Source: a virus (Duplodnaviria; Caudoviricetes). Taken from it: a DNA stretch of 63,194 nucleotides. The stretch covers positions 1 through 63,194 of the IMG/VR virus record IMGVR_UViG_3300028194_000318; one strand, given 5' to 3'. This document shows positions 8,366 through 57,385 of this stretch, one piece after another. Within the stretch, counting starts at the first letter, position 1. Every line of letters starts with the position of its first letter. A model generated the notes under the pieces. It searched no databases and was not told the origin of the DNA. It saw only the letters and a list, made by a program, of their open reading frames with translations. The position numbers and the translations under genes were made by a program.

Positions 8366-8779
8366 ATGAAAAAGGTTTTGTTGTTTATTCTAGCATTGTT
8401 TATTACCTCAACTATACAAGGTCAACAGTGGGTTAGTGATGATAGCTTTACTGATGAAATAAACGGACATTCAGGTGATCAAGATGAAGATATAGTTATT
8501 ATAGAGTTTTGGGCAGAATTTAATAAAGACAATGCTTTTGTAGAGTGGGAGAAGGTAGATGACCTTGACGGTGTAAAATATTTAAGAGCTAACATAGCCC
8601 TTTGCCCATCATTAAAAAAAGAATTTAGAATTAGAATGGTGCCCACTATATTAATTTTTTCAGGAGGAGACGCATTTATAAAGTTCAAAGCTAAAGCCGG
8701 TCTAGACCTCCTATGCCCTGTAGACTATCCTAGGATGGTCAGAGCAATAGAGGTTGTTAGACGAGAAGCTTCTTACTAG
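8366..8779 (+). CDS. Exported thioredoxin-fold protein lacking CxxC
   Basis: Signal peptide. VIIEFWAEFN replaces the WAxWCxxC motif. cis-Pro loop IRMVPTILIF. Confidence 0.7.
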   Translation: MKKVLLFILALFITSTIQGQQWVSDDSFTDEINGHSGDQDEDIVIIEFWAEFNKDNAFVEWEKVDDLDGVKYLRANIALCPSLKKEFRIRMVPTILIFSGGDAFIKFKAKAGLDLLCPVDYPRMVRAIEVVRREASY

Positions 8780-10401
8780 CCTTCACAGCTAGAGCATTCC
8801 AAAATATTTCTTGCAAAATCTTGAGCACTACTTTTACTAAATTGATAGTATAAAGTTTTTACTCCTTCCTCCCAAGCATATAAATACAATTGATTAATCT
8901 GTTTAGCAGATACTGATGGGTCAATCATTAGGTTTAGTGACTGTGACTGATCAATATACTTTTGTCTTTGTGCTGCCTGCAAAACAAGTTCTTTAGGTGT
9001 AATCTCAACAAAAGATTTAAATACAGCTTTGGTAGGAAAGTTTAAGTGTTGGACACTACCATCTTTTTTTAAGATAGACTTCCAGGTCTTATCTGTATTA
9101 AGATCATACTTATCAAGCTCTGCCTCTAGAAAAGGGTTTTTATACACTGTTTTAGATTTAGCAAGATCCTTAATAAAATAATTAGACTTGATAGGCTCTA
9201 TACCCATAGACACAGCACCATGTATAAAAGAACTAGACTTTGTAGGAGCTATAGCCATAAGAGTAGTATTAGCATAACCTTCTCTCAAAGATCTGTATCC
9301 CCATGCACCATGCAACTTTCTTGATGCAATTTCACTTCTATCTTTTAGAGTCCTAAATATTTCTGAGTTAAGTTGTTTAGCTTCAAGTGACTCAAACTCT
9401 ATTAACTTAGATTGAAATAAAGAATGGTATCCTAACACACCTAAGCCAATTGCTCTATGTTTCTCAGCAAAATTAAAGGCTCTCTTCATCCCAGGCATTG
9501 TCTCTGCTTTAATAATAAACTCATCCATTACTGCATTTAAAAAGTATACATATGTTTGTATAGCATCTGTTTCTTTTATTTCATCCCAATGTAAAAGGTT
9601 AATAGATCCTAAACAACAAACAAAAGAGTTATAACTATCTGTTGGTAATTGTATTTCAGAACATAGGTTAGATGCTGTAATATCTAAACCTAGATCTTTA
9701 TATGGAGAATTGTTATTAGAATTATCTTTAAACATTATATAAGGATAACCAAACTCAGATCTACGTTGTATGATTTTAGCCCACACTTTACGTTTTTTTC
9801 TGTCTCCTTCTTTCATTTCTTCCATCCACTTATCTGTGACAGTAATACCATACTGTAGGTTCTGTATAGGATTGCCTTCAGTACCTATGTCTAGAAACTC
9901 TTCTATGTCAGCATGCTCTACAGGTAAGTACACTGCACATGCACCACGTCTTGCCTCAGACTGTTTACAAACATCTACAACTGTATCATACATTCTAGCA
10001 TAATGTATAGGGCCATCAGCATGACCACCTGTAGATATTTCACTTCCTCTAGGTCTAATGTTTCCAAGGTATGCACTTGTTCCTCCACCATACTTAGACA
10101 TCATTCCAATTTCACGGCCTGCATTAAGTATACTATCTAAGTTATCATCTATGTTAGAACCATAACAACTAATAGGTAGTCCTTTCTGCTTGCCAAAGTT
10201 AATCCATACAGGAGTAGACAGAGAGAAAAAACCTCTTGCCATATAATCCTCAAACTTTTCAGCAAAGCCTTTGATGTTTAAATATTTTTCTGCCTTGATG
10301 GCAATGTCTTTAATTCTTTGTTCAGGTGTTTCTGTTATATATCCTCTTGATAAGAAGGTTCTGCTATCATCATTTAGCCAGTAATACTTTTTATATTCCA
10401 T
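8776..10401 (-). CDS. nrdA: Class I ribonucleotide reductase alpha subunit (no ATP cone, class Id-like)
   Basis: Motifs PISCY, SNLCSEI, VCCLGS, APTKSSS, TLYY and C-terminal CSSC. Start chosen at MEYKKYYW. Confidence 0.95.
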   Translation of the reverse strand: MEYKKYYWLNDDSRTFLSRGYITETPEQRIKDIAIKAEKYLNIKGFAEKFEDYMARGFFSLSTPVWINFGKQKGLPISCYGSNIDDNLDSILNAGREIGMMSKYGGGTSAYLGNIRPRGSEISTGGHADGPIHYARMYDTVVDVCKQSEARRGACAVYLPVEHADIEEFLDIGTEGNPIQNLQYGITVTDKWMEEMKEGDRKKRKVWAKIIQRRSEFGYPYIMFKDNSNNNSPYKDLGLDITASNLCSEIQLPTDSYNSFVCCLGSINLLHWDEIKETDAIQTYVYFLNAVMDEFIIKAETMPGMKRAFNFAEKHRAIGLGVLGYHSLFQSKLIEFESLEAKQLNSEIFRTLKDRSEIASRKLHGAWGYRSLREGYANTTLMAIAPTKSSSFIHGAVSMGIEPIKSNYFIKDLAKSKTVYKNPFLEAELDKYDLNTDKTWKSILKKDGSVQHLNFPTKAVFKSFVEITPKELVLQAAQRQKYIDQSQSLNLMIDPSVSAKQINQLYLYAWEEGVKTLYYQFSKSSAQDFARNILECSSCEG

Positions 10402-10411
10402 ATTGGTTTTT

Positions 10412-11389
10412 TTAAAAGAGATCATCTAAGGTGATACTCTTGCTTTTTTTATTATAGTCTACACTCTTTTTGTAAAAGAAGTCTCCCTCTTTTGTTCCAG
10501 TGATTTCTATGTCAAACCACTCTACTGATTTCAATAAATCTTCATTGACATTAAAGATTGGTTTCATACCTATCTTTTCTAATGAATTATTAAATCTATT
10601 TTTTATAAAGTGACGTATAGTTTCTTTAGGTAAGAAACTTAATTCACCTTGCTCAAATATCCAATCAAGGATACCACACTCTGCTTCATATGCTTTTCTA
10701 CATGCAGAATCAATAAGCTCTTCAAACTCTGAGTCAAACCATTCAGGGTTTTCTTTTTTAATAATATTAATTATCTCAGCACCAAAGTTACCGTGTATCT
10801 CTTCCTCTTTACTGGTAGCTTCAACAACGTTAGATATACCTTTGAGTACATTCATTTCTTTGTTAAAACTCATCATAATTAAGAACTGACTAAATAAACT
10901 TACATGCTCTATAAATAAAGAAAATAACAATACAGATTTAGTATACATTTTGTTATCTCTAGATCTAGTACCATCTAGATACTTTCTTAAGTACTTGATT
11001 CTGTTTGCAATAGCAGGTTCTTCTACAACATTTTTAAACTCATCTTCAAGACCAAGGATTCTAAGCAGTCTTGCATAAGCATCTTTGTGTCTTACCTCTG
11101 ACTCTGCAAAGGTAAAGCCTACATCTCCTACCTCAGTGATTGGCATTCTTTTATATAGGTCTCCCCAGAATGTTTTGACATTAACTTCAATCTGAGCAAT
11201 TGCTAGCATTGTTTTCTTTATAACATCTTTCTGGTTAGAGTTTATATTAATTTTAAAATCTTGTATATCTTCAGTAAAATTAAATTCTGTATCAATCCAA
11301 TAAGAATGTCTAATAGCATCTTTATATGCTAATAGTTGTGGGTATTCATATGGCAGGATATTTACTCTAGGTTCAAAGATGTTTTTCAT
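10412..11389 (-). CDS. nrdB: Class I ribonucleotide reductase beta subunit (class Id-like)
   Basis: E68-x3-K72, E98-x2-H101, Y105, FIEH and EEEIH ferritin-like ligands. Confidence 0.95.
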   Translation of the reverse strand: MKNIFEPRVNILPYEYPQLLAYKDAIRHSYWIDTEFNFTEDIQDFKININSNQKDVIKKTMLAIAQIEVNVKTFWGDLYKRMPITEVGDVGFTFAESEVRHKDAYARLLRILGLEDEFKNVVEEPAIANRIKYLRKYLDGTRSRDNKMYTKSVLLFSLFIEHVSLFSQFLIMMSFNKEMNVLKGISNVVEATSKEEEIHGNFGAEIINIIKKENPEWFDSEFEELIDSACRKAYEAECGILDWIFEQGELSFLPKETIRHFIKNRFNNSLEKIGMKPIFNVNEDLLKSVEWFDIEITGTKEGDFFYKKSVDYNKKSKSITLDDLF

Positions 11390-11847: not shown

Positions 11848-12102
11848 ATGTTTAAAAAATTTATAAATGTATTATGGACATATAGTGCTCAAGATTATTG
11901 GAGAGCTGTATGGTCTAAAACATCAGTTGATGAAAAAGCTGAAAAGACTTTGGTAGAAATAGTTAAACGCTATAAGCTTACAGCTGCTGAGTTAGCTGAT
12001 GTAGGTAGAGCAATCAAAGAAGTTGGTAGTCAACTTGGAGACCTTGGTGGTGCAGTTAAAGGTAAAGCCAGAAAAGGTAGAAAGAAAAAAGAGAGTAAGT
12101 AA
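11848..12102 (+). CDS. Small helical protein with basic tail
   Basis: Start reassigned to MFKKFINVLW, after the promoter motif. C-terminus KGKARKGRKKK. Confidence 0.7.
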   Translation: MFKKFINVLWTYSAQDYWRAVWSKTSVDEKAEKTLVEIVKRYKLTAAELADVGRAIKEVGSQLGDLGGAVKGKARKGRKKKESK

Positions 12103-12236
12103 TGGCCAAAATATTAACGGGGAATTATGTTAAACCTTCAAGAAGGAAAAGACCAGGCATACACTCAAAGACAAAAGCTTCTAATTTAAAAGGGAGTAAA
12201 AATTATTTAAAACAATATAAAGGTCAAGGAAGATGA
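12102..12236 (+). CDS. 44-aa basic peptide ending YKGQGR (not in ORF track)
   Basis: MAKILTGNYVKPSRRKRPGIHSKTKASNLKGSKNYLKQYKGQGR. TAATG overlap with the upstream gene. Confidence 0.75.
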   Translation: MAKILTGNYVKPSRRKRPGIHSKTKASNLKGSKNYLKQYKGQGR

Positions 12237-12334
12237 GAAATATTTGTATACTAATTAAGTGGTTAACCTTTGGCAAAGTTTGCTTGGGGCATTGTAAAAA
12301 GGAAGTTTGTAAAAAATCTAAATGTAAAGACTAA
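12233..12334 (+). CDS. 33-aa Cys/Lys-rich peptide (not in ORF track)
   Basis: MRNICILIKWLTFGKVCLGHCKKEVCKKSKCKD. ATGA and TAATG coupling on the two sides. Confidence 0.6.
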   Translation: MRNICILIKWLTFGKVCLGHCKKEVCKKSKCKD

Positions 12335-12477
12335 TGGACTGGCAACTAGAGATAGCATTTCACTGGCCTCACAATAGATTTGCATTAGGTTGGGAATATA
12401 TTGCAAAAGATGAAGAGTATGATTATAGTACAATTAAATTGTATCTAGTAATAGCAACATTAACTTTTGATTATTAA
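12334..12477 (+). CDS. 47-aa aromatic beta-strand peptide (not in ORF track)
   Basis: MDWQLEIAFHWPHNRFALGWEYIAKDEEYDYSTIKLYLVIATLTFDY. Translationally coupled. Confidence 0.7.
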   Translation: MDWQLEIAFHWPHNRFALGWEYIAKDEEYDYSTIKLYLVIATLTFDY

Positions 12478-12485
12478 AAAGAATA

Positions 12486-12674
12486 ATGGGTAAGAATAAA
12501 AATAGTTTAGTGGTAGGAAAGCTTTCAAGACAAAAGTCAAAACTTCTTATGAGATCAGGCGGTGAATTAGCTGAGATGGTAATGGGAAGTATTGAAAAGT
12601 TTTCTAAAGGGGGAAAGAAAAAACTAGGTGGAGGAACGCATAATACATATAGTGGTAAAAGCAAAAAGAAATGA
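12486..12674 (+). CDS. Small basic protein with xxGG motifs
   Basis: Lys-rich, with MRSGG, FSKGG and KKLGG. Confidence 0.7.
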   Translation: MGKNKNSLVVGKLSRQKSKLLMRSGGELAEMVMGSIEKFSKGGKKKLGGGTHNTYSGKSKKK

Positions 12675-13789
12675 ACATTTTAACTGACATACTAAGTTTA
12701 ATTAAACGTGGAGTATATGCTGAGAAAGCAGGGGTTAATGATGTTTTAGTTTTAGGTGTCAATGAAGAACCTGAAATGACAGGTGTGGCATCTCCTATAC
12801 CATATAAAAGTGTTAAGCTTATAAAAGTAAAAGATTTTAAGGTTGCTGCTTCTAACTGTGAGTATAAAAACTCTCCTACAGTTCCTGCATCAGGTACTGG
12901 ACAAGTATATCAGAAAACTGATATTGATGCAACAACACAAGCCTGCACTGTTTTTTTTAGATCTCTAAAGTCAATGAGCAGCAACCTAACTCTTGCAACA
13001 TCATCTGATGATAATTATATAGAAATAACAACAGAGGGTGAGCCAAATCTTGCAGCTAATGTTGGAAGTGGAGCAGAAGTATGGAAAAATAAAGTTGGTG
13101 AAACATTAAACTTTAGAAGTATAGTACAGGGAAGCAATATAAGTGTAGCACAAAGTACAAATGAAATATCACTTAGTGTTCCTGCAGGTGGAGGTTTAAG
13201 CCTAACTACAACCGGAACATCTGGAGCAGCAACATTAAGCAGTGGTGTTTTAAATATCCCCAACTATGCAACAGGCGGTGGTGGTGGTATGACAAGCTTT
13301 AATGTATATGATGAGAATCCAGGTGGTGCAGGACCAGGCTTTACTGTAAATGATTCAGATAATGTTTTATTTTGGGGACGTAATGGAGTAGGAACAATAA
13401 CTGGTGTTCCTTTAGGTTCAACAGCTAATCCTAAGTCAGTAGCAGTAGGATTAGATCATTATTATAAAGCATATGTATGTAAGATAAGTCAAAGTCTTAC
13501 TAATGACCCAACAGAGACTATAGTATATAATGACACAGGATTAACATTAACATGGTCAAGAGTGGGTATAGGACAATATAGAGCAACTTGGTCTACACCA
13601 ATAACTGCTGGAGATGACTTTGTAATAAACCCTATGCCAGTATTTAAAAATGCTCCTAACAGTATAAATGTAATTGCGGCTACTAATTCTAGTTTTACAG
13701 TAGTTACTAATAAGCTTGATTTAAATTTAGCACCTGAAGAAGATAGTGTATTAGAAAATACACCAATAGAAATAAGAATTTATCAATAA
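12671..13789 (+). CDS. Fibre-like structural protein with shared N-terminal anchor domain
   Basis: G/T/S-rich. Carries one SLTTTGTSGAATLSSGVLNIP repeat shared with the 15655 gene. Confidence 0.7.
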   Translation: MNILTDILSLIKRGVYAEKAGVNDVLVLGVNEEPEMTGVASPIPYKSVKLIKVKDFKVAASNCEYKNSPTVPASGTGQVYQKTDIDATTQACTVFFRSLKSMSSNLTLATSSDDNYIEITTEGEPNLAANVGSGAEVWKNKVGETLNFRSIVQGSNISVAQSTNEISLSVPAGGGLSLTTTGTSGAATLSSGVLNIPNYATGGGGGMTSFNVYDENPGGAGPGFTVNDSDNVLFWGRNGVGTITGVPLGSTANPKSVAVGLDHYYKAYVCKISQSLTNDPTETIVYNDTGLTLTWSRVGIGQYRATWSTPITAGDDFVINPMPVFKNAPNSINVIAATNSSFTVVTNKLDLNLAPEEDSVLENTPIEIRIYQ

Positions 13790-13793
13790 AATT

Positions 13794-14204
13794 ATGCCAA
13801 ACTTTATAACAAAATTATTTTCAAGCGGAGCAACTAAATTAGTTGAAGGAATAGGTGGTGTCTTAGATGAGCTTATTACTTCTAAAGATGAAAAGCTAGC
13901 AGCTGAATTAAAGATAAAAGAATTAGTAGCAAAACATGAAGCAGAAATGGAAAAAGAAATTTCTTCTAGATGGGCTGCTGATATGACCAGTGATAGCTGG
14001 CTATCAAAGAATGTTAGACCTATGGTTCTTATTTTCTTAGTAGTGTCAACAGTATTATTAGTATTTATAGATGCAGGAGTAATTGAGTTTGAAGTAAAAG
14101 CTAGTTGGGTAGATCTACTACAACTGGTTTTAATAACAGTAATAGGAGCCTACTTTGGTGGAAGGTCAATTGAAAAAGTTAGAAAAAATAAAGATGGGAA
14201 ATAA
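13794..14204 (+). CDS. Holin, 3TM (GTA-holin-like)
   Basis: DSWLSKNVRPMVLIFL...YFGGRSIEKV signature with hydrophobic helices. Confidence 0.8.
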   Translation: MPNFITKLFSSGATKLVEGIGGVLDELITSKDEKLAAELKIKELVAKHEAEMEKEISSRWAADMTSDSWLSKNVRPMVLIFLVVSTVLLVFIDAGVIEFEVKASWVDLLQLVLITVIGAYFGGRSIEKVRKNKDGK

Positions 14205-14484
14205 GAAATCAAGAAATAAAAAACGCATGCAAGCATATGCTAAAGGAGGTGGTCTTATGGGCTATACTACAGGTGGTAGTGTTTTGGATGAAAAACAACT
14301 TGGTGGAATAGTTAAAGCTGTTAAACCTTTTATAAAGAAAGCTGCAAGTAAACTAAAAAAAATCTATACAGACTATAAAGGAACAACTTATGATCCAAAG
14401 TTATTAGAAAATACAGGATATGCTAGAAAAGTAGATCTTGAACAAGGAATTAAAAATAGAAAACAAGCAACGGGATCAAATTAA
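14194..14484 (+). CDS. Small basic protein with xxGG motifs
   Basis: Start MGNKKSRN. Contains YAKGGGLMGYTTGG and KQLGG. Confidence 0.7.
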   Translation: MGNKKSRNKKRMQAYAKGGGLMGYTTGGSVLDEKQLGGIVKAVKPFIKKAASKLKKIYTDYKGTTYDPKLLENTGYARKVDLEQGIKNRKQATGSN

Positions 14485-14509
14485 TATTAACAATTTAAAA
14501 TTAGAAATT

Positions 14510-14761
14510 ATGGGAAAAGCAAAAGTAGTAAAGTATCAAGGTGGAGGTGGATTCACTTACGGAGCAGGAGATGGTGACATTACTCCACAAAAAGCAAACA
14601 TGGAATCAATGGCCAAAGGTGGTGGTTTAATGGGCTTCACAACTGGTGGGGGTGTCATGGACGGAATGATGGATAAGAAAGGAAAAGGTGGTGGTACCGG
14701 AAAAGGTAATGCTAGAAAAAACAAACCACCAGGTAGTAGACTGGCTTATGACGCACTATAA
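14510..14761 (+). CDS. Small Gly/Met/Lys-rich protein with xxGG motifs
   Basis: Start MGKAKVV. Contains YQGGG and MAKGGGLMGFTTGG. Confidence 0.7.
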   Translation: MGKAKVVKYQGGGGFTYGAGDGDITPQKANMESMAKGGGLMGFTTGGGVMDGMMDKKGKGGGTGKGNARKNKPPGSRLAYDAL

Positions 14762-14764
14762 AAA

Positions 14765-14977
14765 ATGCCAGCTAAAAAGAAATCAGCTTCTAAGAAGAAC
14801 TGGATAAAAGGAGCAATTAAAAAGCCAGGTGCTTTAAAAGCTACTGCTAAAAGAGCAGGGGCAATGAAAGCTGATGGAACTATTAAGAAAAGCTGGCTTA
14901 GGGAAAAGGCAAAAGGGACTGGTAAGACAGCACAACGTGCTAGGCTTGCTTTAACTTTAGGTAAAATGAAAAAATAA
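14765..14977 (+). CDS. Small highly basic protein
   Basis: KNWIKGAIKKPGALK...RARLALTLGKM. About one third Lys/Arg. Confidence 0.8.
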   Translation: MPAKKKSASKKNWIKGAIKKPGALKATAKRAGAMKADGTIKKSWLREKAKGTGKTAQRARLALTLGKMKK

Positions 14978-14978
14978 T

Positions 14979-15062
14979 ATGAATAATAGAACTCAATGTA
15001 TATGTGGAAACACTCAGAATCCTGATGGACTCTGTGATGGATCACATCTACTTAATAAATAA
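14979..15062 (+). CDS. 27-aa CDGSH-type [2Fe-2S]-binding micro-protein (not in ORF track)
   Basis: MNNRTQCICGNTQNPDGLCDGSHLLNK. Exactly fills the gap between two genes. Confidence 0.75.
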   Translation: MNNRTQCICGNTQNPDGLCDGSHLLNK

Positions 15063-15067
15063 TAATC

Positions 15068-15289
15068 ATGGCAAAAAAAATATCATTCCCAATGGGAGAC
15101 GGTAAAGTAGAGAATGGGTACTATAACCCTACTTCTGTATATCAGAAGACTTTACAAAAAAGAAATGCAAAAGCAGTAGCTAAAAGACAAAGACTTGCAA
15201 AAGCAGGAATCAAATGTGATATGGATTCTACTAGAGCAGCTGAGCCTGTTCAATCTAAAGCTTTTAGAAACGGATATAGAAATAGTTAA
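15068..15289 (+). CDS. Small basic hypothetical protein
   Basis: 73-aa ORF in the operon, with an A-rich leader. Confidence 0.7.
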   Translation: MAKKISFPMGDGKVENGYYNPTSVYQKTLQKRNAKAVAKRQRLAKAGIKCDMDSTRAAEPVQSKAFRNGYRNS

Positions 15290-15299
15290 AAAATAAAAC

Positions 15300-15644
15300 A
15301 TGGCAATATTAACAGCACAACAAATAAGTCAAGCTGGTTTGGAACCTACAACGGTTACTCCGGCTGCAGGTGGTGATACACTTGCAAATACAGCAGTTCA
15401 ATTTTTTCATGTGGCTAATGGTGGAGGAGTAGCTATGACAGCTACAGTTGTACCAGTAGTGACAACAGTTGTAGATCCTTTATTGGGTACACTGAAAAAA
15501 GAAAATGCAGTACTCAGCTTAGCGGCTGGTGAAGAAGGTTTTTTAGGACCTTTTGAAGTTGATGCATTTAATGATGTCAATGGTAATATAACAATAACAT
15601 GTTCAGCAACAGCTAGTGTGAAACTATCTGCACTGTACTTATAA
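15300..15644 (+). CDS. Small beta-rich structural (decoration-like) protein
   Basis: A/T/V/G-rich all-beta pattern, located next to the fibre genes. Confidence 0.55.
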   Translation: MAILTAQQISQAGLEPTTVTPAAGGDTLANTAVQFFHVANGGGVAMTATVVPVVTTVVDPLLGTLKKENAVLSLAAGEEGFLGPFEVDAFNDVNGNITITCSATASVKLSALYL

Positions 15645-15654
15645 ATAAAAAACA

Positions 15655-18600
15655 ATGGGATCATTATTACAAGATGTAATTGGATTATTTTCCAAAAAGA
15701 AATATGCACCAAAACCATATGATGTAAACAAAGAAGGTAAGGAAGACTACCTAGTACTATCTACAAAACAAGATAGTTCTTTAAACGTTATGGCATATTT
15801 ACCTAAGTTAGATCAAGAGTTAATCTCTATATTTGACTTAGCCACAGCAATCAATGGTGCAGGAAATACTACTTATGATTTTGCTAATGCTGACCTAGGT
15901 GGAAAAACAAACCTAAATCTTACTGGTTCAGATGGTACTGTAGATACAGTAAGTCTTGTAGGAGGAACAGGTGTTACTATTGCAAGCACAGGATCTGATG
16001 TTGAGTTTAGTGTTACAGCAGGAACTTATGTAGAATGTACAGGAACCAACACTGCTAACGCAATACCTATGTGGAACGGGGGTACTTGTTCTCTTGATGA
16101 TAGTAATATTACTTATGATGGCAACAACATGTACATTTTGGAGTCTGGTAAAAAATTCCAAGTAGGTTGGTTAAATATGTCAACTTCAGGAGTTATAGAT
16201 ACATCTAATGGTACAGGAGCAGTTGGTCAAGTTCTTACAGTAGCTGCTAGTGGTCAATTAGAATGGACTACAAACGGTACTGGTTCTATGAGCTCATGGA
16301 ATGTAGGTGGTGAAGGTGGTTTTTCAGTAACAGATGGAGAAAGTGTTTTATTTATAGGAGGAGCAAAGCTTACTTCTATAGCTAACAATGGAAATGAATC
16401 AGTTACATTTAGTCATAATAATACAACTAGAGTTGACACAAACTCAGCAGTATCACCTGCTGCAGGTGGTACATTTACAGTAGTAGATTCTATTACACAA
16501 GATGCTACAGGTCATCCCACGGCAGTTAATGTTAAGACAGTAACTTTACCAAACCCATCTGATGATAATACAACATATGATCTTACAGGTGCAGCAAACG
16601 GTTCTAGCTATGAAGTAAAATTAACAGGATCAGATGCAACAGTAGATACAATATCATTTAATCCAGGAGGAGGTGTAACTCTAACTGATGAAGGAGGTAA
16701 TAATGTTAAAATTAATGTTCCAGAAGGAACGGTTACTAGTGTATCAGGAGGTTTAGGAACAACTGTAACAGGAACTGGAAGTGTAGCTCCAGTAGTGAAT
16801 ATAGATTACGCAGGAAATGATAATGCAATAATTATTGCACCAACAACAACCCCAGTAGCAGATGATTATATATGGTTTAGTGATACTAGTGATAATGGTG
16901 ATATTAAAAAAGGATTAATATCAAACCTTCCAGGAGGAAGTGGTGGAGTAACTCAAATTGTAGCAGGTACTAATGTAAGTATAAGCCCATCAGGTGGTAC
17001 GGGTGTTGTTACTATAAACTCAACTGATAACTTTAGTGGTACAGTTACTTCTGTAACAGGAGGAACAAGTACTTTTATAACTAATACTGTAGTGAACCCT
17101 TCAACTGTTCCAGTACTAACATCTACGTTAAGTGCAACCGGGACAGCAAACGCAACTTCTTTTTTAAGAGGAGACAATGTTTGGGCAACTATTCCAGGTG
17201 GTGATACAACATACAACTTAGGTGTACCAGCAGCTACTACACAAATTAATTTAAATGGGAGTGACGGAACAAATACTCCTGTAACTATAACAGGTGGAAC
17301 TAATGTAACAGTTACCAGAACTTCTGGTACTGAGCTTACAATAGATTCTACTGATCAATATAGTGGTACAGTTACAACTGTTTCTTCTACCACGGCAGGT
17401 GATGCATTAGACGTTGCAGTAACAAATCCTACAACAACTCCTGATTTAGCATTTACTTTTGCAGGTGCTGCAGGAGATTATATTAATGGTCTAGGTAATT
17501 TAGTTACTTTTCCATCAATACCTTCAGTTCCAGCAGACATAGTTAATACAGTAACCACAACAGATGGTAACTTTATTGACCTTACACCAGATGCAGCAGT
17601 AACTGGATCAGTAACAGTAACAGCTGATCTTTCAGCAACAGGTACTGCAGATGCTACTACATATTTAAGGGGTGATAATACTTGGGCTGCTATTCCTGCA
17701 GGGGGTTCAGTAACAAGTGTTGGTGCTACAACAACAGGTGATGCTTTAAATGTAGCTAACTCACCTATAACAAACAATGGTACACTAGCTTTCTCATGGA
17801 CAGGTGATGCTACACAATATATAAATGGAGCGGGTGATAAAGTTTTATTAAGTACATTACCTCAAGGTGCAGTAACAAGTTTGACAACAACTGGAACAAG
17901 TGGAGCATCAACGTTGAATTCAGGAGTTTTAAATATACCTAATTACGCTAATACACAAAATTCTTTAACTACAACAGGAACTGGTGCTGCAACACTTGTT
18001 GGTACTGTTCTAAACATACCTACTCCAGTTATACCATTTACAAGTTTAACTACTACGGGTAGTTCAGGTGCAGCTACATTAAATAGTGGAGTTCTTAATA
18101 TACCTCAGTACGGTGGAGGAAGCACATATGGAGCAGGCCCAGGTTTAATACTTAATACTACACCAACCCCTGATCAATTTGAATTAGATTATGTTGGAAC
18201 AGATAACTACATATACCGTCAGCCTACAAAATCAATTACTTCAGCTGATTTCTTACCATGGACAGATGCTGCTGCAACTCCAAATGTATTTAAAACATCA
18301 CCTGCAGCTATTATTAATGCAGGTCTGTCTTTAACAACTACAGGTTCAAGTGGTGCTGCAACATTAAGTTCATCAGGAGTATTAAATATCCCACAATATT
18401 CTGGAGGAGGTGGTGGTTTTACTAGTTTTGATATAACAGATAATACTACTACACAAACTATAACTAGTGGTTCTACTATAGAATTTACCAAAGCTAATCT
18501 TGCTTCAACTGAAGGTGGTCTTACAATTGCTGTAAGTGCAACTGATAAAGTAACAATAGGTGTAAATGCTTTAGGTACTGATAACTTAATTTTATCTAGA

Positions 18601-19827
18601 CCAACTACTACAGTTCAGAATACTGATTACTTAATGATCAGTGATACTAGTGGTGGAAATCAATTAATAAAGCAACAAATTTATTTAATGCCTGGTTATT
18701 ACAGCGGTTTTATGGCTAGAGGTAATGGTATAACTGCAGGAAGTAGTCTTGTAACAAGTGAACAAGGATTAAATATTGCAGGAGGTACAGGTTTAAGTAC
18801 AATTGCTAGTGAATCAACACCAGCTGGACAGGAAACTCAAAAGAAAATACAAATAAATATAGATGATACTGGTGTAACAGCAGGAGCTTATACTAATGCA
18901 AACATCACAGTAAATGCTCAAGGGCAAATTACAGCAGCAGCTAATGGTTCTGGTGGTGGTGGAACAGTAACTAGTTTAACAACTACTGGAACAACCGGGG
19001 CAGCAACACTAAACTCTGGAGTATTAAATATTCCTCAGTATGGTGGTATAAATGCTGTTAACTTACTATTAGGAACAAGTACTGGAGCTCCTTTGACAAC
19101 TTCTGTAGCTTTTAATGCTTTAAATATTACATCAAATGCATTTGCAGGAGGAACTAAAGTTGGTCATGTACCATCATATGGTTCTGATCCAGGAAACCAA
19201 AAGTTCTATTTAGATGCAACAGGAACCTGGAGTAATCCAAGTTCTGCCGTAGCTCCACAATCAGGTTGTGGTGTAAAAGTTACTTCAGGCACTAATGTAT
19301 TAGATATATATTATGGAGATGGTGTTGCTACTACTAGTAATGTAATTACTTGTGCAACCCTTGGAACAAAAGAAGTTTTTGATATACAAACTGATCATAT
19401 TTTATATAATGATAAAGATGTAGGTGGTACAAACGTTGATGTAGCTAAAAAAATAGTAGTAAAAGATGTATTTGATAGATATGTGTCAAGATCAACTGCA
19501 CCACTTTCAAATGCATGGTGTAGAGTTATTACTGGGCAAACTGGTTTTAATGCTCCTGCTAATCAAGGTAGATCAGCTATAGGAACACTAACAGCTACTT
19601 CAACAGGAGCTAATGGTGTAACTTTATCTTGGACAAAAGCTTTATCTGGTGTAAATTATGCGGTTGTAGTTACTAGTGAAAATATCTCTACTCCAATTTG
19701 GTGTGCTGTAAGAGGAAAGACAACAACAAGTTGTATTATTACTACTAAGAATATGCAGAGTGGTGTTGATGTAAACAGCCAAGAAGTAAATGTAGTAATT
19801 TATGATACATCTTTAGACACAATATAA
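15655..19827 (+). CDS. Long repetitive fibre protein
   Basis: 1390 aa, T/G/S-rich, with several internal repeat families and the shared N-terminal anchor. Confidence 0.85.
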   Translation: MGSLLQDVIGLFSKKKYAPKPYDVNKEGKEDYLVLSTKQDSSLNVMAYLPKLDQELISIFDLATAINGAGNTTYDFANADLGGKTNLNLTGSDGTVDTVSLVGGTGVTIASTGSDVEFSVTAGTYVECTGTNTANAIPMWNGGTCSLDDSNITYDGNNMYILESGKKFQVGWLNMSTSGVIDTSNGTGAVGQVLTVAASGQLEWTTNGTGSMSSWNVGGEGGFSVTDGESVLFIGGAKLTSIANNGNESVTFSHNNTTRVDTNSAVSPAAGGTFTVVDSITQDATGHPTAVNVKTVTLPNPSDDNTTYDLTGAANGSSYEVKLTGSDATVDTISFNPGGGVTLTDEGGNNVKINVPEGTVTSVSGGLGTTVTGTGSVAPVVNIDYAGNDNAIIIAPTTTPVADDYIWFSDTSDNGDIKKGLISNLPGGSGGVTQIVAGTNVSISPSGGTGVVTINSTDNFSGTVTSVTGGTSTFITNTVVNPSTVPVLTSTLSATGTANATSFLRGDNVWATIPGGDTTYNLGVPAATTQINLNGSDGTNTPVTITGGTNVTVTRTSGTELTIDSTDQYSGTVTTVSSTTAGDALDVAVTNPTTTPDLAFTFAGAAGDYINGLGNLVTFPSIPSVPADIVNTVTTTDGNFIDLTPDAAVTGSVTVTADLSATGTADATTYLRGDNTWAAIPAGGSVTSVGATTTGDALNVANSPITNNGTLAFSWTGDATQYINGAGDKVLLSTLPQGAVTSLTTTGTSGASTLNSGVLNIPNYANTQNSLTTTGTGAATLVGTVLNIPTPVIPFTSLTTTGSSGAATLNSGVLNIPQYGGGSTYGAGPGLILNTTPTPDQFELDYVGTDNYIYRQPTKSITSADFLPWTDAAATPNVFKTSPAAIINAGLSLTTTGSSGAATLSSSGVLNIPQYSGGGGGFTSFDITDNTTTQTITSGSTIEFTKANLASTEGGLTIAVSATDKVTIGVNALGTDNLILSRPTTTVQNTDYLMISDTSGGNQLIKQQIYLMPGYYSGFMARGNGITAGSSLVTSEQGLNIAGGTGLSTIASESTPAGQETQKKIQINIDDTGVTAGAYTNANITVNAQGQITAAANGSGGGGTVTSLTTTGTTGAATLNSGVLNIPQYGGINAVNLLLGTSTGAPLTTSVAFNALNITSNAFAGGTKVGHVPSYGSDPGNQKFYLDATGTWSNPSSAVAPQSGCGVKVTSGTNVLDIYYGDGVATTSNVITCATLGTKEVFDIQTDHILYNDKDVGGTNVDVAKKIVVKDVFDRYVSRSTAPLSNAWCRVITGQTGFNAPANQGRSAIGTLTATSTGANGVTLSWTKALSGVNYAVVVTSENISTPIWCAVRGKTTTSCIITTKNMQSGVDVNSQEVNVVIYDTSLDTI
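17878..19041 (+). repeat. Five copies of the SLTTTG(T/S)SGAATLxSGVLNIP coding repeat
   Basis: Copies near 17878, 17962, 18043, 18328 and 18973. A sixth copy is at about 13199 in another gene. Confidence 0.85.
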
Positions 19828-50134: not shown

Positions 50135-50425
50135 ATGGCAAAGAAGAAAGATAGTAGACTAGCAAGAGCAGGAGTATCTGGGTTTAACAAACCTAAGAGA
50201 ACTCCTTCTCACCCTAAAAAATCACACGTAGTTGTGGCTAAGGTGGGTGATAAAGTAAAAACCATTAGATTTGGTGAGCAAGGTGCTAGTACAGCTGGTA
50301 AACCTAAATCTGGTGAATCTGCAAAAATGAAAGCTAAAAGAAAATCTTTCAAAGCTAGACACGGTAAGAACATTAAGAAAGGTAAAATGAGTGCTGCTTA
50401 TTGGGCAGATAAAGTAAAATGGTAA
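50135..50425 (+). CDS. Basic viral protein
   Basis: KTIRFGEQG...RKSFKARH...SAAYWADKVKW. Confidence 0.8.
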   Translation: MAKKKDSRLARAGVSGFNKPKRTPSHPKKSHVVVAKVGDKVKTIRFGEQGASTAGKPKSGESAKMKAKRKSFKARHGKNIKKGKMSAAYWADKVKW

Positions 50426-54924: not shown

Positions 54925-55206
54925 ATGAGAAATCAAACAGTAGTACCAGTAGGAATGAAATTGTTAATTAAAGAAATAAAACCAGAGACTAAAACTGCAT
55001 CAGGTTTATATTTACCTGAACAATTTTCCAAGCAAACTTTTCAAGGTACAGTTGTAGGAAGAGGAGATGAAGTAACGTCAATACAAATTGGTGATACAGT
55101 GCAATATGCAGATCATGCTATGCCAACACCAATGCAACATAATGGGGAAGAACACTTATTATTGCAATTAGGAGATGTCTATGCAATTATAAGATATGAT
55201 GAGTAG
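54925..55206 (+). CDS. groES: Co-chaperonin GroES/Cpn10
   Basis: PVGMKLLIK, mobile loop ETKTASGLYLP, GTVVGRG, IGDTV. Confidence 0.9.
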   Translation: MRNQTVVPVGMKLLIKEIKPETKTASGLYLPEQFSKQTFQGTVVGRGDEVTSIQIGDTVQYADHAMPTPMQHNGEEHLLLQLGDVYAIIRYDE

Positions 55207-57385
55207 AATTATTCCTATATATGATGGTAAATGGGGTACAAAAGAATTTCAAACTGATGCTGATTTTCAAGAATATCTAGAGCTTATTTTTAAAGAACCT
55301 GGTGAGTATAATTTTACCAAGATGGCTTTAAAATTTAATGAGCAAGCTAGAATATTTAATGATCAGGGTAATTATTGTAGTGCACCTTTTAGATCTAAAG
55401 ATTTTAATGCATATTGGAATGATCAAAAAAATAAATGTAGAACAGGTGTAATCTACAAAGATGGCAATAAAGAATGGTACCTAACTAGGGACTATTATAT
55501 GTGGCTTAATTTCCTTCCTATTTTTGATAAAGAAGAAAAGCGTTATGGTTTTGCAAAAGTAAGAGATGCTCAATATCACATGGCATTATATGAAATCATT
55601 GCAGAACTAAATAATCAACATGTTGCTATACTTAAAAAAAGACAGATAGCTTCATCATATTTTCATATGGGTAAAATTATAAACCAATACTGGTTTGAAG
55701 AAGGATCTATATGCAAAGTAGGAGCATCACTTAAAGATTATATAAATGATAAAGGTTCATGGAAATTTCTTGAAGAATATAAAACTTTTTTAAATGAGCA
55801 TACTGCATGGTATAGGCCAAGTAATCCAGAAAAGGTATTATTATGGCAACAACAGATTGAAGTAAAAATAAACAATAGAAAAACATCCAGAGGGCTCAAA
55901 TCTAAAATACAAGGTGCTTCTTTTGAAAAGAATGCTACTACAGGGGTAGGGGGTCCATGTACTTACTTCTTTCATGAGGAAGCAGGTATTGCAAAAAACA
56001 TGATGCAGACATATGAGTATCTGCGTCCTGCTATGTCTTCAGGTATGATGACAACTGGACAATTTATAGCAGCAGGATCTGTAGGTGATTTAGAACAGTG
56101 TAATCCTTTAAAGGATATGATACTGAATCCTGGTGCTAATGATATATATGCAGTAGAAACTAATCTAATGGATGCTGATGGTACTATTGGTATGGCAGGG
56201 TTGTTTATACCTGAACAGTGGTCTATGCCACCTTATATTGATGATTATGGTAATTCTCAAATAGAGGAAGCTATCAAAGCAATTAAGATGGAAAGAGAAA
56301 GATGGAAGAATGAATTAAATGGTGAACAATTCCAATTAAGAATATCTCAAAAGCCATTAAATATTGCAGAGGCATTTGCTTATAGAAAAGAATCAATTTT
56401 TCCACAAGGTATATTAAGTAAACAAATAAAAAAAATAGAAGAAAAAGAATATCCATATGAATTAATAAAACTAGATAGAGATGAGACAGGTGTTATTGCA
56501 TCTAGAACAAGCAAACTACCTATATCTCAATTTCCTGTTAACAAAAAACAAACTGATAAAACAGGTACTATTGTAGTTTGGGAAAGACCAGCAAAAAAGA
56601 AACCTGATTTTGGAGCATACTATGCTTCTATTGACCCTGTGTCAGAAGGTAAGACAACTACATCAGATTCATTGTGTAGTATTTTTGTTTATAAAAATGC
56701 AATAGAAGTAACAAGAACTTTATCAGGCGGTGATGTAGAACAATTTATAGAAAAAGATAAAATAGTAGCTGCTTGGTGTGGTAGATTTGATGACATTAAT
56801 AGAACACATGAAAGATTAGAATTAATAATTGAATGGTATAATGCTTGGACTATTGTTGAGAATAATATATCCTTGTTTATACAACATATGATTGCTAGAA
56901 AAAAACAAAGATACTTAGTTCCTAAACAACAAATATTGTTTCTAAAAGATCTAGGATCTAACAAAACAGTGTATCAAGAATATGGTTGGAAAAATACTGG
57001 AACTTTATTTAAGAGTCATTTAATTTCATATGCAATTGAGTTTTTAAGAGAGGTGATTGATGAGGAAACAGATACTGAAGGTAATGTAATGAGACAAACA
57101 TTAGGTATAGAAAGAATACCTGATCCAATGTTATTAAAAGAAATGCAAGCTTACCACCCTGGTTTAAACGTGGATAGAATGGTAGCATTTGGTGCATTAA
57201 TTGCATTTGTTAAAATACAACAATCTAACAGAGGATATTCCAAAAGACGTGAATCAGAGGACAATTCCTTGGTAAATTCAGAAAAAATAAGTAAATTAAA
57301 GTATAGCCCATTTAAGAATCTTGGGCGTAGTAAAAGAGATAATAATTCTAGAATAAGAAGATCTGGCTTTAAAAATTATAAATAG
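55196..57385 (+). CDS. terL: Terminase large subunit
   Basis: LKKRQIASS, FHEEAG, IDPV, ENN, DRMVA. Adjacent to the portal gene. Confidence 0.9.
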   Translation: MMSRIIPIYDGKWGTKEFQTDADFQEYLELIFKEPGEYNFTKMALKFNEQARIFNDQGNYCSAPFRSKDFNAYWNDQKNKCRTGVIYKDGNKEWYLTRDYYMWLNFLPIFDKEEKRYGFAKVRDAQYHMALYEIIAELNNQHVAILKKRQIASSYFHMGKIINQYWFEEGSICKVGASLKDYINDKGSWKFLEEYKTFLNEHTAWYRPSNPEKVLLWQQQIEVKINNRKTSRGLKSKIQGASFEKNATTGVGGPCTYFFHEEAGIAKNMMQTYEYLRPAMSSGMMTTGQFIAAGSVGDLEQCNPLKDMILNPGANDIYAVETNLMDADGTIGMAGLFIPEQWSMPPYIDDYGNSQIEEAIKAIKMERERWKNELNGEQFQLRISQKPLNIAEAFAYRKESIFPQGILSKQIKKIEEKEYPYELIKLDRDETGVIASRTSKLPISQFPVNKKQTDKTGTIVVWERPAKKKPDFGAYYASIDPVSEGKTTTSDSLCSIFVYKNAIEVTRTLSGGDVEQFIEKDKIVAAWCGRFDDINRTHERLELIIEWYNAWTIVENNISLFIQHMIARKKQRYLVPKQQILFLKDLGSNKTVYQEYGWKNTGTLFKSHLISYAIEFLREVIDEETDTEGNVMRQTLGIERIPDPMLLKEMQAYHPGLNVDRMVAFGALIAFVKIQQSNRGYSKRRESEDNSLVNSEKISKLKYSPFKNLGRSKRDNNSRIRRSGFKNYK

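Follow-up and report, generated by a model that had tools for sequence, protein, structure and literature searches.

The locus studied here raises the question of whether an open reading frame (ORF) of only 27 codons, enclosed between two small phage genes, is a gene at all, and, if it is, how its product is related to the CDGSH (mitoNEET-type) iron-sulfur domain whose ligand residues it displays and what such a peptide could do for a virus. The ORF lies in a 63,194-base IMG/VR virus record with a CheckV completeness of 55% and a G+C content of 30-37%, and the whole of this stretch is called the window throughout. An earlier note on this DNA had described the ORF as an unannotated CDGSH iron-sulfur microprotein expressed with the late genes.

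Anatomy of the ORF

The product of the ORF is MNNRTQCICGNTQNPDGLCDGSHLLNK, a peptide of 27 aa (Table 1). The upstream ORF stops 1 nt before its ATG and the next ATG (15068) is found 5 nt past its stop, and the position, the 27 codons and this spacing all agree with those given in the earlier note. All four ligand residues (Cys7, Cys9, Cys19 and His23) are present, preceded by six residues of polar character and followed by four more behind the histidine. The peptide is soluble as judged from its composition (GRAVY -0.84) and has no hydrophobic or transmembrane (TM) segment. When the loop motif was written as a degenerate DNA pattern, it matched the window once (14997-15047), while 100 shuffles that preserved dinucleotide composition gave no match. 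The peptide in its exact form is absent from a collection of about 15 billion predicted proteins, so the description as unannotated holds in that sense; relatives of the peptide are present in the same collection, some of them under the JGI name 'CDGSH-type Zn-finger protein'.

Table 1. Features of the window discussed in the text, with their coordinates and the basis of each assignment.
Feature	Position	Strand	Basis and remarks
Class I ribonucleotide reductase (RNR) pair	10412-11389 and 8776-10425	-	small subunit by PDB match
Holin, phrog_3427 / Pfam GTA_holin_3TM	13794..14204	+	PHROG E 4.8e-31, Pfam E 2.5e-5; two hydrophobic segments
Very basic 70-aa protein, phrog_20603 (function unknown)	14765..14977	+	E 1.7e-8; pI 11.7
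Mini-CDGSH microprotein gene	14979..15062	+	27 codons and TAA (15060-15062), ATG at 14979
Predicted metal-binding loop, Cys7 to His23, C-x-C-G-x-T-x4-G-x-C-D-G-S-H	14997..15047	+	family alignment, Pfam
73-aa conserved protein	15068..15289	+	always immediately 3' of the mini gene in this clade
Tail protein, phrog_16194	15300..15644	+	PHROG; anchor for collecting 54 related loci
Terminase large subunit	55196-57385	+	24-26% identity over about 85% of its length to crAss-like gut phages

Genomic setting and probable host

The mini gene belongs to a same-strand block composed of the holin, which ends 775 nt upstream, small basic proteins without an assigned family, the tail protein and very large fibre-like proteins. 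The replication genes are on the opposite strand, and the endolysin, terminase, portal and major head protein form a second plus-strand block. No terminator-like site was found on the plus strand between 12300 and 16000, and the placement among late genes proposed earlier is borne out by this arrangement of structural and lysis genes. Promoter-like sites in the scan were not in excess (18, versus 13.2±3.4 in shuffled sequences), although the sigma-70 consensus used may not fit the host, and an Rfam search of 14400-15500 gave no family at E≤1.

Several small neighbours deserve mention in their own right. The 70-aa protein directly upstream weakly resembles the fusellovirus VP2 capsid/DNA-binding family (E 0.015, under the cut-off) and could be a virion component, either a basic internal protein or one that binds DNA, and the 73-aa protein directly downstream had no match in Pfam or PHROG searches. 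Further upstream on the plus strand, 14155-14761 contains two overlapping small ORFs with Gly/Met-rich and Lys-rich products, a repeated 'GGGLMGF'-like motif and no family match; these ORFs differ in number and form across the 54 related loci, and 14193-14484 is missing from one RNA-library contig of a relative.

With respect to the host, the terminase also matches 29 Flavobacterium phage records, in addition to the crAss-like gut phages, and the gene starts of the region are A-rich and without Shine-Dalgarno sequences. The small RNR subunit, NrdB, matches the PDB entries 6sf4/5olk at E 1e-134 and the group 6cwo/6cwp/6cwq at about 1e-89, all of which we take to be class Id dimanganese R2 proteins of flavobacteria. 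If this class identity is right, the RNR would plausibly be iron-independent, as had been supposed before from the sequence, and would point to a host among the Flavobacteriia. Because of the terminase and NrdB matches and the character of the gene starts, the window is probably from a marine crAss-like phage of Bacteroidota, an assignment of host made from these sequence comparisons. Cultured phages offered little for comparison: a blastn search with 12000-19000 gave just four matches of 54-94 nt, and a tblastn search with the window peptide gave none at E≤1.

A conserved gene under purifying selection

Using the tail protein as anchor we collected 54 related viral loci, 53 of which are assessable, as one (L053) is cut. 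At the corresponding position, 21 of the 54 have an ORF of 26-28 codons that encodes the CDGSH motif, as does the window itself (L055), and this ORF is always directly 5' of the homologue of the 73-aa protein. These 22 copies represent 11 distinct nucleotide sequences, and the pooled Nei-Gojobori dN/dS of their 23-codon core was 0.256 in frame versus 0.53-1.18 in the five other frames, which rules out coding in another frame or strand. Furthermore, the invariant C, G, T, G, G, S and H positions are each written with two or three synonymous codons. The mini-CDGSH ORF is a real gene under purifying selection, and the earlier reading of it as a genuine gene stands.

The contrary view would be that no independent gene exists here, either because the ORF arose by chance in a spacer or because the upstream protein runs on into it as a C-terminal extension, through a +1 frameshift at the A-run ahead of its stop. 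The extreme shortness of the ORF, the absence of the exact peptide from the protein collection and the end of the upstream gene, AAA AAA TAA, 1 nt ahead of the ATG, all lend themselves to this view, which we nevertheless regard as hardly credible: selection in frame is clear, the motif does not arise in shuffled sequence, hundreds of free-standing homologues each have an ATG of their own, and related loci without the mini gene have no gap at the site. The frameshift extension in particular was rejected because several carrier loci have a different protein upstream and because in one of them (L003) a stop directly precedes the ATG.

Contigs from RNA libraries of close relatives, originating in two studies, contain the frame intact (X16, 14764-15456; X17, 14764-15652; X15, 15013-15133), a library origin that is in itself no proof of transcription. 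Seven differences within the ORF are listed for these contigs; five are synonymous by codon reading, and two fall in one variable codon and one in another.

The mini gene is missing from 32 of the 53 close relatives, and its distribution on the tail-protein tree needs at least seven gains or losses, two of them forced by well-supported branches. Judged from this distribution, the gene is thus optional and mobile within the clade, and dispensable.

Relation to the CDGSH iron-sulfur domain

At E≤1 the only Pfam family returned for the window peptide was zf-CDGSH (PF09360), with E 0.11 and 13.3 bits, residues 7-23 being placed on profile positions 32-47 of 48; this score is below the gathering cut-off of the family, 29.5 bits. 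Among 15 longer viral relatives, six scored 13.6-16.1 bits against the same profile. PHROGs, NCBIfam and PADLOC contained no family for the peptide, and Pfam gave no other metal-knuckle family. A profile built from 73 family members was more informative: against the PDB it gave eight matches at E≤10, seven of which are CDGSH proteins, the best being 3tbm (E 0.01), and over 1.84 billion representative proteins it retrieved 352 matches at E≤1e-3 and 23 at E≤1e-10. These included CDGSH proteins that pass the Pfam threshold (P0012, P0013, P0023, P0041, P0043, P0053, P0097, P0106 and P0143), which were found at E 7e-12 to 1e-6. The relation to CDGSH proteins that had been proposed from the motif is upheld by the Pfam listing, by the PDB matches and by this retrieval.

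According to Lin et al. 2011 (PMC3174974), the CDGSH signature comprises 17 residues, hydrophobic-C-X-C-X2-(S/T)-X3-P-hydrophobic-C-D-G-(S/T/A)-H, and the spacing between the second and third cysteines of the window peptide is one residue above this consensus. HMMER places a single loop gap at this residue in the alignments with 3tbm and 3tbn. The four ligands and the longer loop noticed earlier are both confirmed. The signature C, C, T and C-D-G-S-H are all present in the peptide, the Pro-hydrophobic pair is replaced by Gly-x, and the proline is found one position earlier and is variable, being P, S or A in the clade copies. In turn, C, C, G, T, G, C, D, G and H are invariant across the 73 aligned members. 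Since Pfam-passing CDGSH proteins are retrieved by the family profile, and since in some of them (P0041, P0053 and P0097) one motif also has the additional loop residue, the sequences establish that the peptide and the cluster-binding loop of CDGSH proteins are homologous, and the longer loop is, on the same comparison, a natural variant.

Homology of the loop does not extend to the rest of the domain. The same paper regards a beta-sandwich, complete with N-strand and lid-proline P motif, as indispensable for the iron-sulfur module (PMC3174974). The N-strand, the P motif and the beta-sandwich dimerisation module are all absent from the 27-residue peptide, and the lack of a beta-cap reported in the earlier note is upheld. 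Because the remainder of the domain is missing, we class the peptide, in sequence terms, as a bare CDGSH loop and not as a domain of that type. AlphaFold2 gave low-confidence models without regular secondary structure for both a 33-residue member (73 sequences, pLDDT 66) and a 52-residue tandem form (36 sequences, pLDDT 66.3). A Foldseek search of the PDB (no match at E≤10) and a VIA-align search of 48,161 chains (none at Z≥2) are uninformative for a metal-free loop this small.

A family shared by phages and bacteria

The window peptide combines the invariant C-x-C-G-x-T-x4-G-x-C-D-G-S/T-H with a length of at most 45 residues and its own start and stop, which is what we mean by a mini-loop protein. 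It shares 48-89% identity with 61 family members, with an ungapped core. Motif scans found at least 119 viral stretches in IMG/VR and at least 120 cellular stretches in prokaryotes, using one genome per species; short forms of 45 aa or less made up 76 of the 106 distinct viral motif proteins and 100 of the 121 cellular motif ORFs. A search of 5.8 billion protein clusters limited to lengths of 12-79 aa gave 757 at E≤1e-3, and a precomputed Pfam domain was absent in all but one of the best 120 of these 757. The taxonomy of 80 titled cellular loci showed 57 Bacteroidota (mostly marine Flavobacteriales, e.g. Polaribacter), 12 Paenibacillaceae or other Bacillales and 11 Verrucomicrobiota.

The mini-loop family occurs in free-standing, tandem and fused forms in marine phages, Flavobacteriales, Paenibacillus and Opitutales. 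Many members of these three bacterial groups encode the microprotein on their chromosomes, and it is no phage novelty. It can also be regarded as an abundant and mostly uncalled phage micro-gene, 27 codons being under the limits of many gene callers.

Among the viral forms, four of the 119 viral loci listed (L076:199-657, L090:595-1194, L095 and L099) encode XkdF-type prohead proteases (Peptidase_S78_2, E 1e-11 to 5e-13) with the loop fused on as their C-terminal end. This fusion would put the loop inside the procapsids of those phages, and it gives a hint, though a mere hint, for the earlier idea that the peptide is packaged. In other viral forms the loop opens proteins of about 108 aa or precedes Cys-rich tails. 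Four proteins of 56-72 aa (L058, L061, L082 and L113) have the loop followed by a C-terminal tail with six to eight further cysteines and no Pfam match, and a 96-aa viral protein (L132:382-669) has a degenerate second loop near its N-terminus (C-x-C-G-x-S...C-x-G-x-H) and an intact loop at its C-terminus.

Cellular forms are equally varied. The Opitutales motif ORFs in the cellular scan are tandem two-loop proteins of 52-63 aa. In Opitutales and Verrucomicrobiota together, such two-loop proteins span 42-68 aa, with a short Pro/Ala linker (P0001, P0003, P0004, P0010 and P0151-P0192; further loci L263, L266, L281, L295 and others), and some of the contigs are 400-740 kb long. One protein (P0002) has three loops behind a leader that resembles an organelle transit peptide. 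In genomes of the Coraliomargaritaceae type, ribosomal protein S16 (P0148; L313, L345; PF00886, E 8.6e-22) contains the loop in a long acidic C-terminal extension.

We found no paper that describes the mini-CDGSH loop as a module. Literature searches on CDGSH combined with phage, viral metagenomes, YceI or microprotein gave nothing on such mini forms, and the texts of two evolutionary surveys of CDGSH proteins (PMC3174974 and PMC5859297) contain neither 'virus' nor 'phage' nor 'shortest'; in the text of PMC5859297, 'short' and 'minimal' were likewise not found. New in this work are the selection test on the clade, the counts of YceI and FMN-reductase operons, and the association with lysis cassettes.

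Redox genes accompany the bacterial homologues

In the cellular loci the mini gene keeps a characteristic company. A YceI gene (PF04264, E 2.9e-25) is located directly upstream on the same strand in 58 of the 120 loci listed (36 of the 75 with full flanks), and the gap between the YceI stop and the mini-gene ATG is 54 nt or less in 57 of these 58. An NADPH-dependent FMN reductase (PF03358, E 2.9e-26) follows downstream on the same strand in 14 of the 120. Other genes found in these loci encode HxlR (9) and MarR (9) regulators, pirin (4) and nitroreductase (4). In addition, Pfam confirmed fusions of the loop with YceI via a hydrophobic segment (P0051, P0135), with FMN_red (P0042), with 2OG-FeII_Oxy_3 (P0101) and with Ribosomal_S16 (P0148).

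By the predicted functions of these genes, the cellular company is that of a redox or electrophile-stress module. The redox role suggested in the earlier note thus receives indirect support from the operons and fusions of cellular relatives with FMN reductase, YceI, nitroreductase and 2OG-Fe(II) oxygenase; the roles of iron scavenger and of Fe-S carrier, which it had also put forward, are not supported. The tight linkage of YceI, mini-loop and FMN reductase in marine flavobacteria would offer a testable function for the poorly understood YceI and bacterial CDGSH families.

Metal centre and proposed function

Our best reading of the window peptide, which we rate at about an even chance, is that of a host-derived redox microprotein consisting of a CDGSH loop, most likely with a labile [2Fe-2S] cluster, and made together with the late genes. 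Cys7, Cys9, Cys19 and His23 would hold one metal centre, most likely a labile [2Fe-2S] as in mitoNEET, and two loops may act jointly, given that tandem two-loop forms exist and that single-motif CISDs are dimers. The peptide would then be a small electron-transfer or redox-sensing module. The gene was probably acquired from a host, and in the phage it would be co-expressed with the late structural and lysis block and feed the YceI/flavin-reductase redox pathway of the host. No YceI or FMN reductase is encoded in the window or in the collected viral loci, so that this phage partner is deduced from the presumed hosts.

Several observations speak against the best reading: the Pfam score is far under the cut-off, the motif proline is not conserved, the AlphaFold2 models are of low confidence, the collected viral loci have no YceI or FMN reductase, and the gene is dispensable in the clade. 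The beta-sandwich, N-strand and lid-proline motif are moreover all absent, which would leave a cluster unshielded and might make zinc the favoured metal. The competing proposal is a knuckle that binds one Zn2+ (or a mononuclear iron), has no redox chemistry and acts as a small tag, either structural or for protein binding. Besides the lack of a beta-sandwich or lid proline to shield a cluster, it would account for the loop occurring as a terminal appendage of unrelated proteins (XkdF protease, ribosomal protein S16 and YceI), and zinc knuckles are frequent in ribosomal and phage proteins. The JGI label 'CDGSH-type Zn-finger protein' could be counted in its favour as well, although the name 'zinc finger' for CDGSH predates the demonstration of iron-sulfur in mitoNEET. 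A zinc knuckle would not, however, explain why the CDGSH signature is invariant beyond the four ligands, in the Thr and in Asp-Gly-Ser/Thr, or why most of the neighbouring and fused genes code for redox enzymes of the flavin or iron kind, and no other metal-knuckle family was found in Pfam at E≤1. Taken together, the redox gene company and the invariance of these non-ligand residues make a redox-active iron-sulfur centre more likely than zinc in a structural role only. For the metal itself, the chances of [2Fe-2S] appear about balanced, and zinc is a possible but clearly less probable occupant; we hold the structural tag with no redox chemistry to be similarly tentative.

Should the bare loop hold a [2Fe-2S] cluster, it would do so in about half the size of a rubredoxin, it would contradict the supposed need of the CDGSH module for a beta-sandwich, and it would provide a natural, chemically synthesisable model of minimal iron-sulfur peptides. 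A self-sufficient [2Fe-2S] peptide of this kind, if that reading is true, would be the smallest natural iron-sulfur protein.

Association with lysis genes

In phages a holin or M15 endolysin gene often lies close to the mini gene, at a distance of about 1 kb or less. Full 600-nt flanks are available for 71 of the viral motif loci; a Peptidase_M15_3 endolysin (phrog_894) is encoded in the flank of 27 of these, a phrog_3427-type holin in 11 and at least one of the two in 35. Counted over all 119 viral loci listed, 48 have a holin or M15 endolysin in the flank. On a second, unrelated backbone, anchored on a 142-aa protein with two TM segments, the mini gene is present in 18 of 80 loci, mostly right behind the anchor. 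One of these loci (L175) has the order tail fibre, 46-aa TM protein, 142-aa two-TM protein, mini gene, 51-aa TM protein, M15 endolysin, 60-aa protein and phrog_3427 holin. The phrog_3427 family adjoins mini-CDGSH genes in other phage lineages too; in a 114-kb record the holin gene leads straight into the mini gene, in a 122-kb record the two are about 1.5 kb apart, and no phrog_3427 holin was found in three of the five records searched. In a further set of loci (L057, L071, L088, L104 and relatives) the mini gene is flanked by the small proteins phrog_27331, phrog_23735 and phrog_7595, which are not lysis genes; a phrog_7595 protein is also encoded in the window (50135-50425), where the endolysin gene follows about 0.6 kb downstream.

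These data raise the possibility that the peptide modulates the timing of lysis, its cytoplasmic metal loop sensing redox state or iron and acting on holin or endolysin as an antiholin-like cofactor, a function compatible with either metal. T4 RIII, a small cytoplasmic antiholin cofactor, provides a precedent, and the frequency of lysis genes in the full flanks, the L175 gene order, the 114-kb and 122-kb records and the 775 nt between holin and mini gene in the window all fit the idea. Nevertheless, we judge it unlikely. In the clade of the window the holin is present in 52 of the 54 loci and the mini gene in just 21, the direct neighbours vary between lineages, a phrog_3427 holin is lacking in most of the records searched, the cellular homologues are unconnected with lysis, and the peptide has no TM segment. 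Moreover, the lineages have the holin family in common and are not independent, and the region between holin and tail gene is variable and could be a hot spot of accessory genes. Literature on antiholins and iron-sulfur centres gave nothing relevant.

The association with lysis genes is recurrent, and an accessory-gene hot spot accounts for it roughly as well as a lysis function would, since the lineages share a holin family, the clade loci have the holin regardless of the mini gene, and gene content varies. The repeated gain and loss of the mini gene beside lysis genes would point either to a hot spot for accessory genes taken from hosts or to a so far unrecognised influence on when lysis occurs. 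The most far-reaching combination, in which a self-sufficient [2Fe-2S] 27-mer originating from the flavobacterial YceI/FMN-reductase module, with paired loops shielding two clusters, would tune holin or endolysin to redox state or iron, seems to us very unlikely. The redox microprotein of host origin remains our preferred reading.

Comparison with known systems

The closest known relatives of the peptide are the bacterial CISDs of types 3-7 (3tbm, 3tbn; PF09360) as described by Lin et al. 2011 (PMC3174974), which have the same C-x-C-G-x-(S/T)...C-D-G-S-H loop with three Cys and one His. They are the best PDB matches of the phage-peptide family, and the loop with one additional residue is found inside three of them (P0041, P0053 and P0097). 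Unlike the phage peptide, these proteins have 60-90 residues or more per domain, with N-strand, lid proline and beta-sandwich (PMC3174974), and their motif has a Pro-hydrophobic pair where the phage peptide has Gly-x. The mitoNEET/CISD1-3 proteins (3fnv, 4oo7, 7p0p, 6avj and the plant protein 3s2q) are more distant: the C-D-G-S/A-H end of their loop aligns with the mini loop, but the matches are weak (E 0.27-2.7), and the proteins, none of them viral, possess a membrane anchor, a beta-cap and a helix behind the histidine. It is from this group that the 3Cys-1His [2Fe-2S] model of the earlier note is drawn.

Two further comparisons concern size and context. Rubredoxins and the smallest ferredoxins, of about 45-55 residues, have one Cys-ligated iron centre in a folded core and serve as carriers beside flavin reductases; they share with the mini-CDGSH peptide a very small size and solubility, whereas the peptide is only about half as large and has no sequence relation to them. 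Lysis regulators of the T4 RIII type are likewise small soluble phage proteins encoded with lysis genes.
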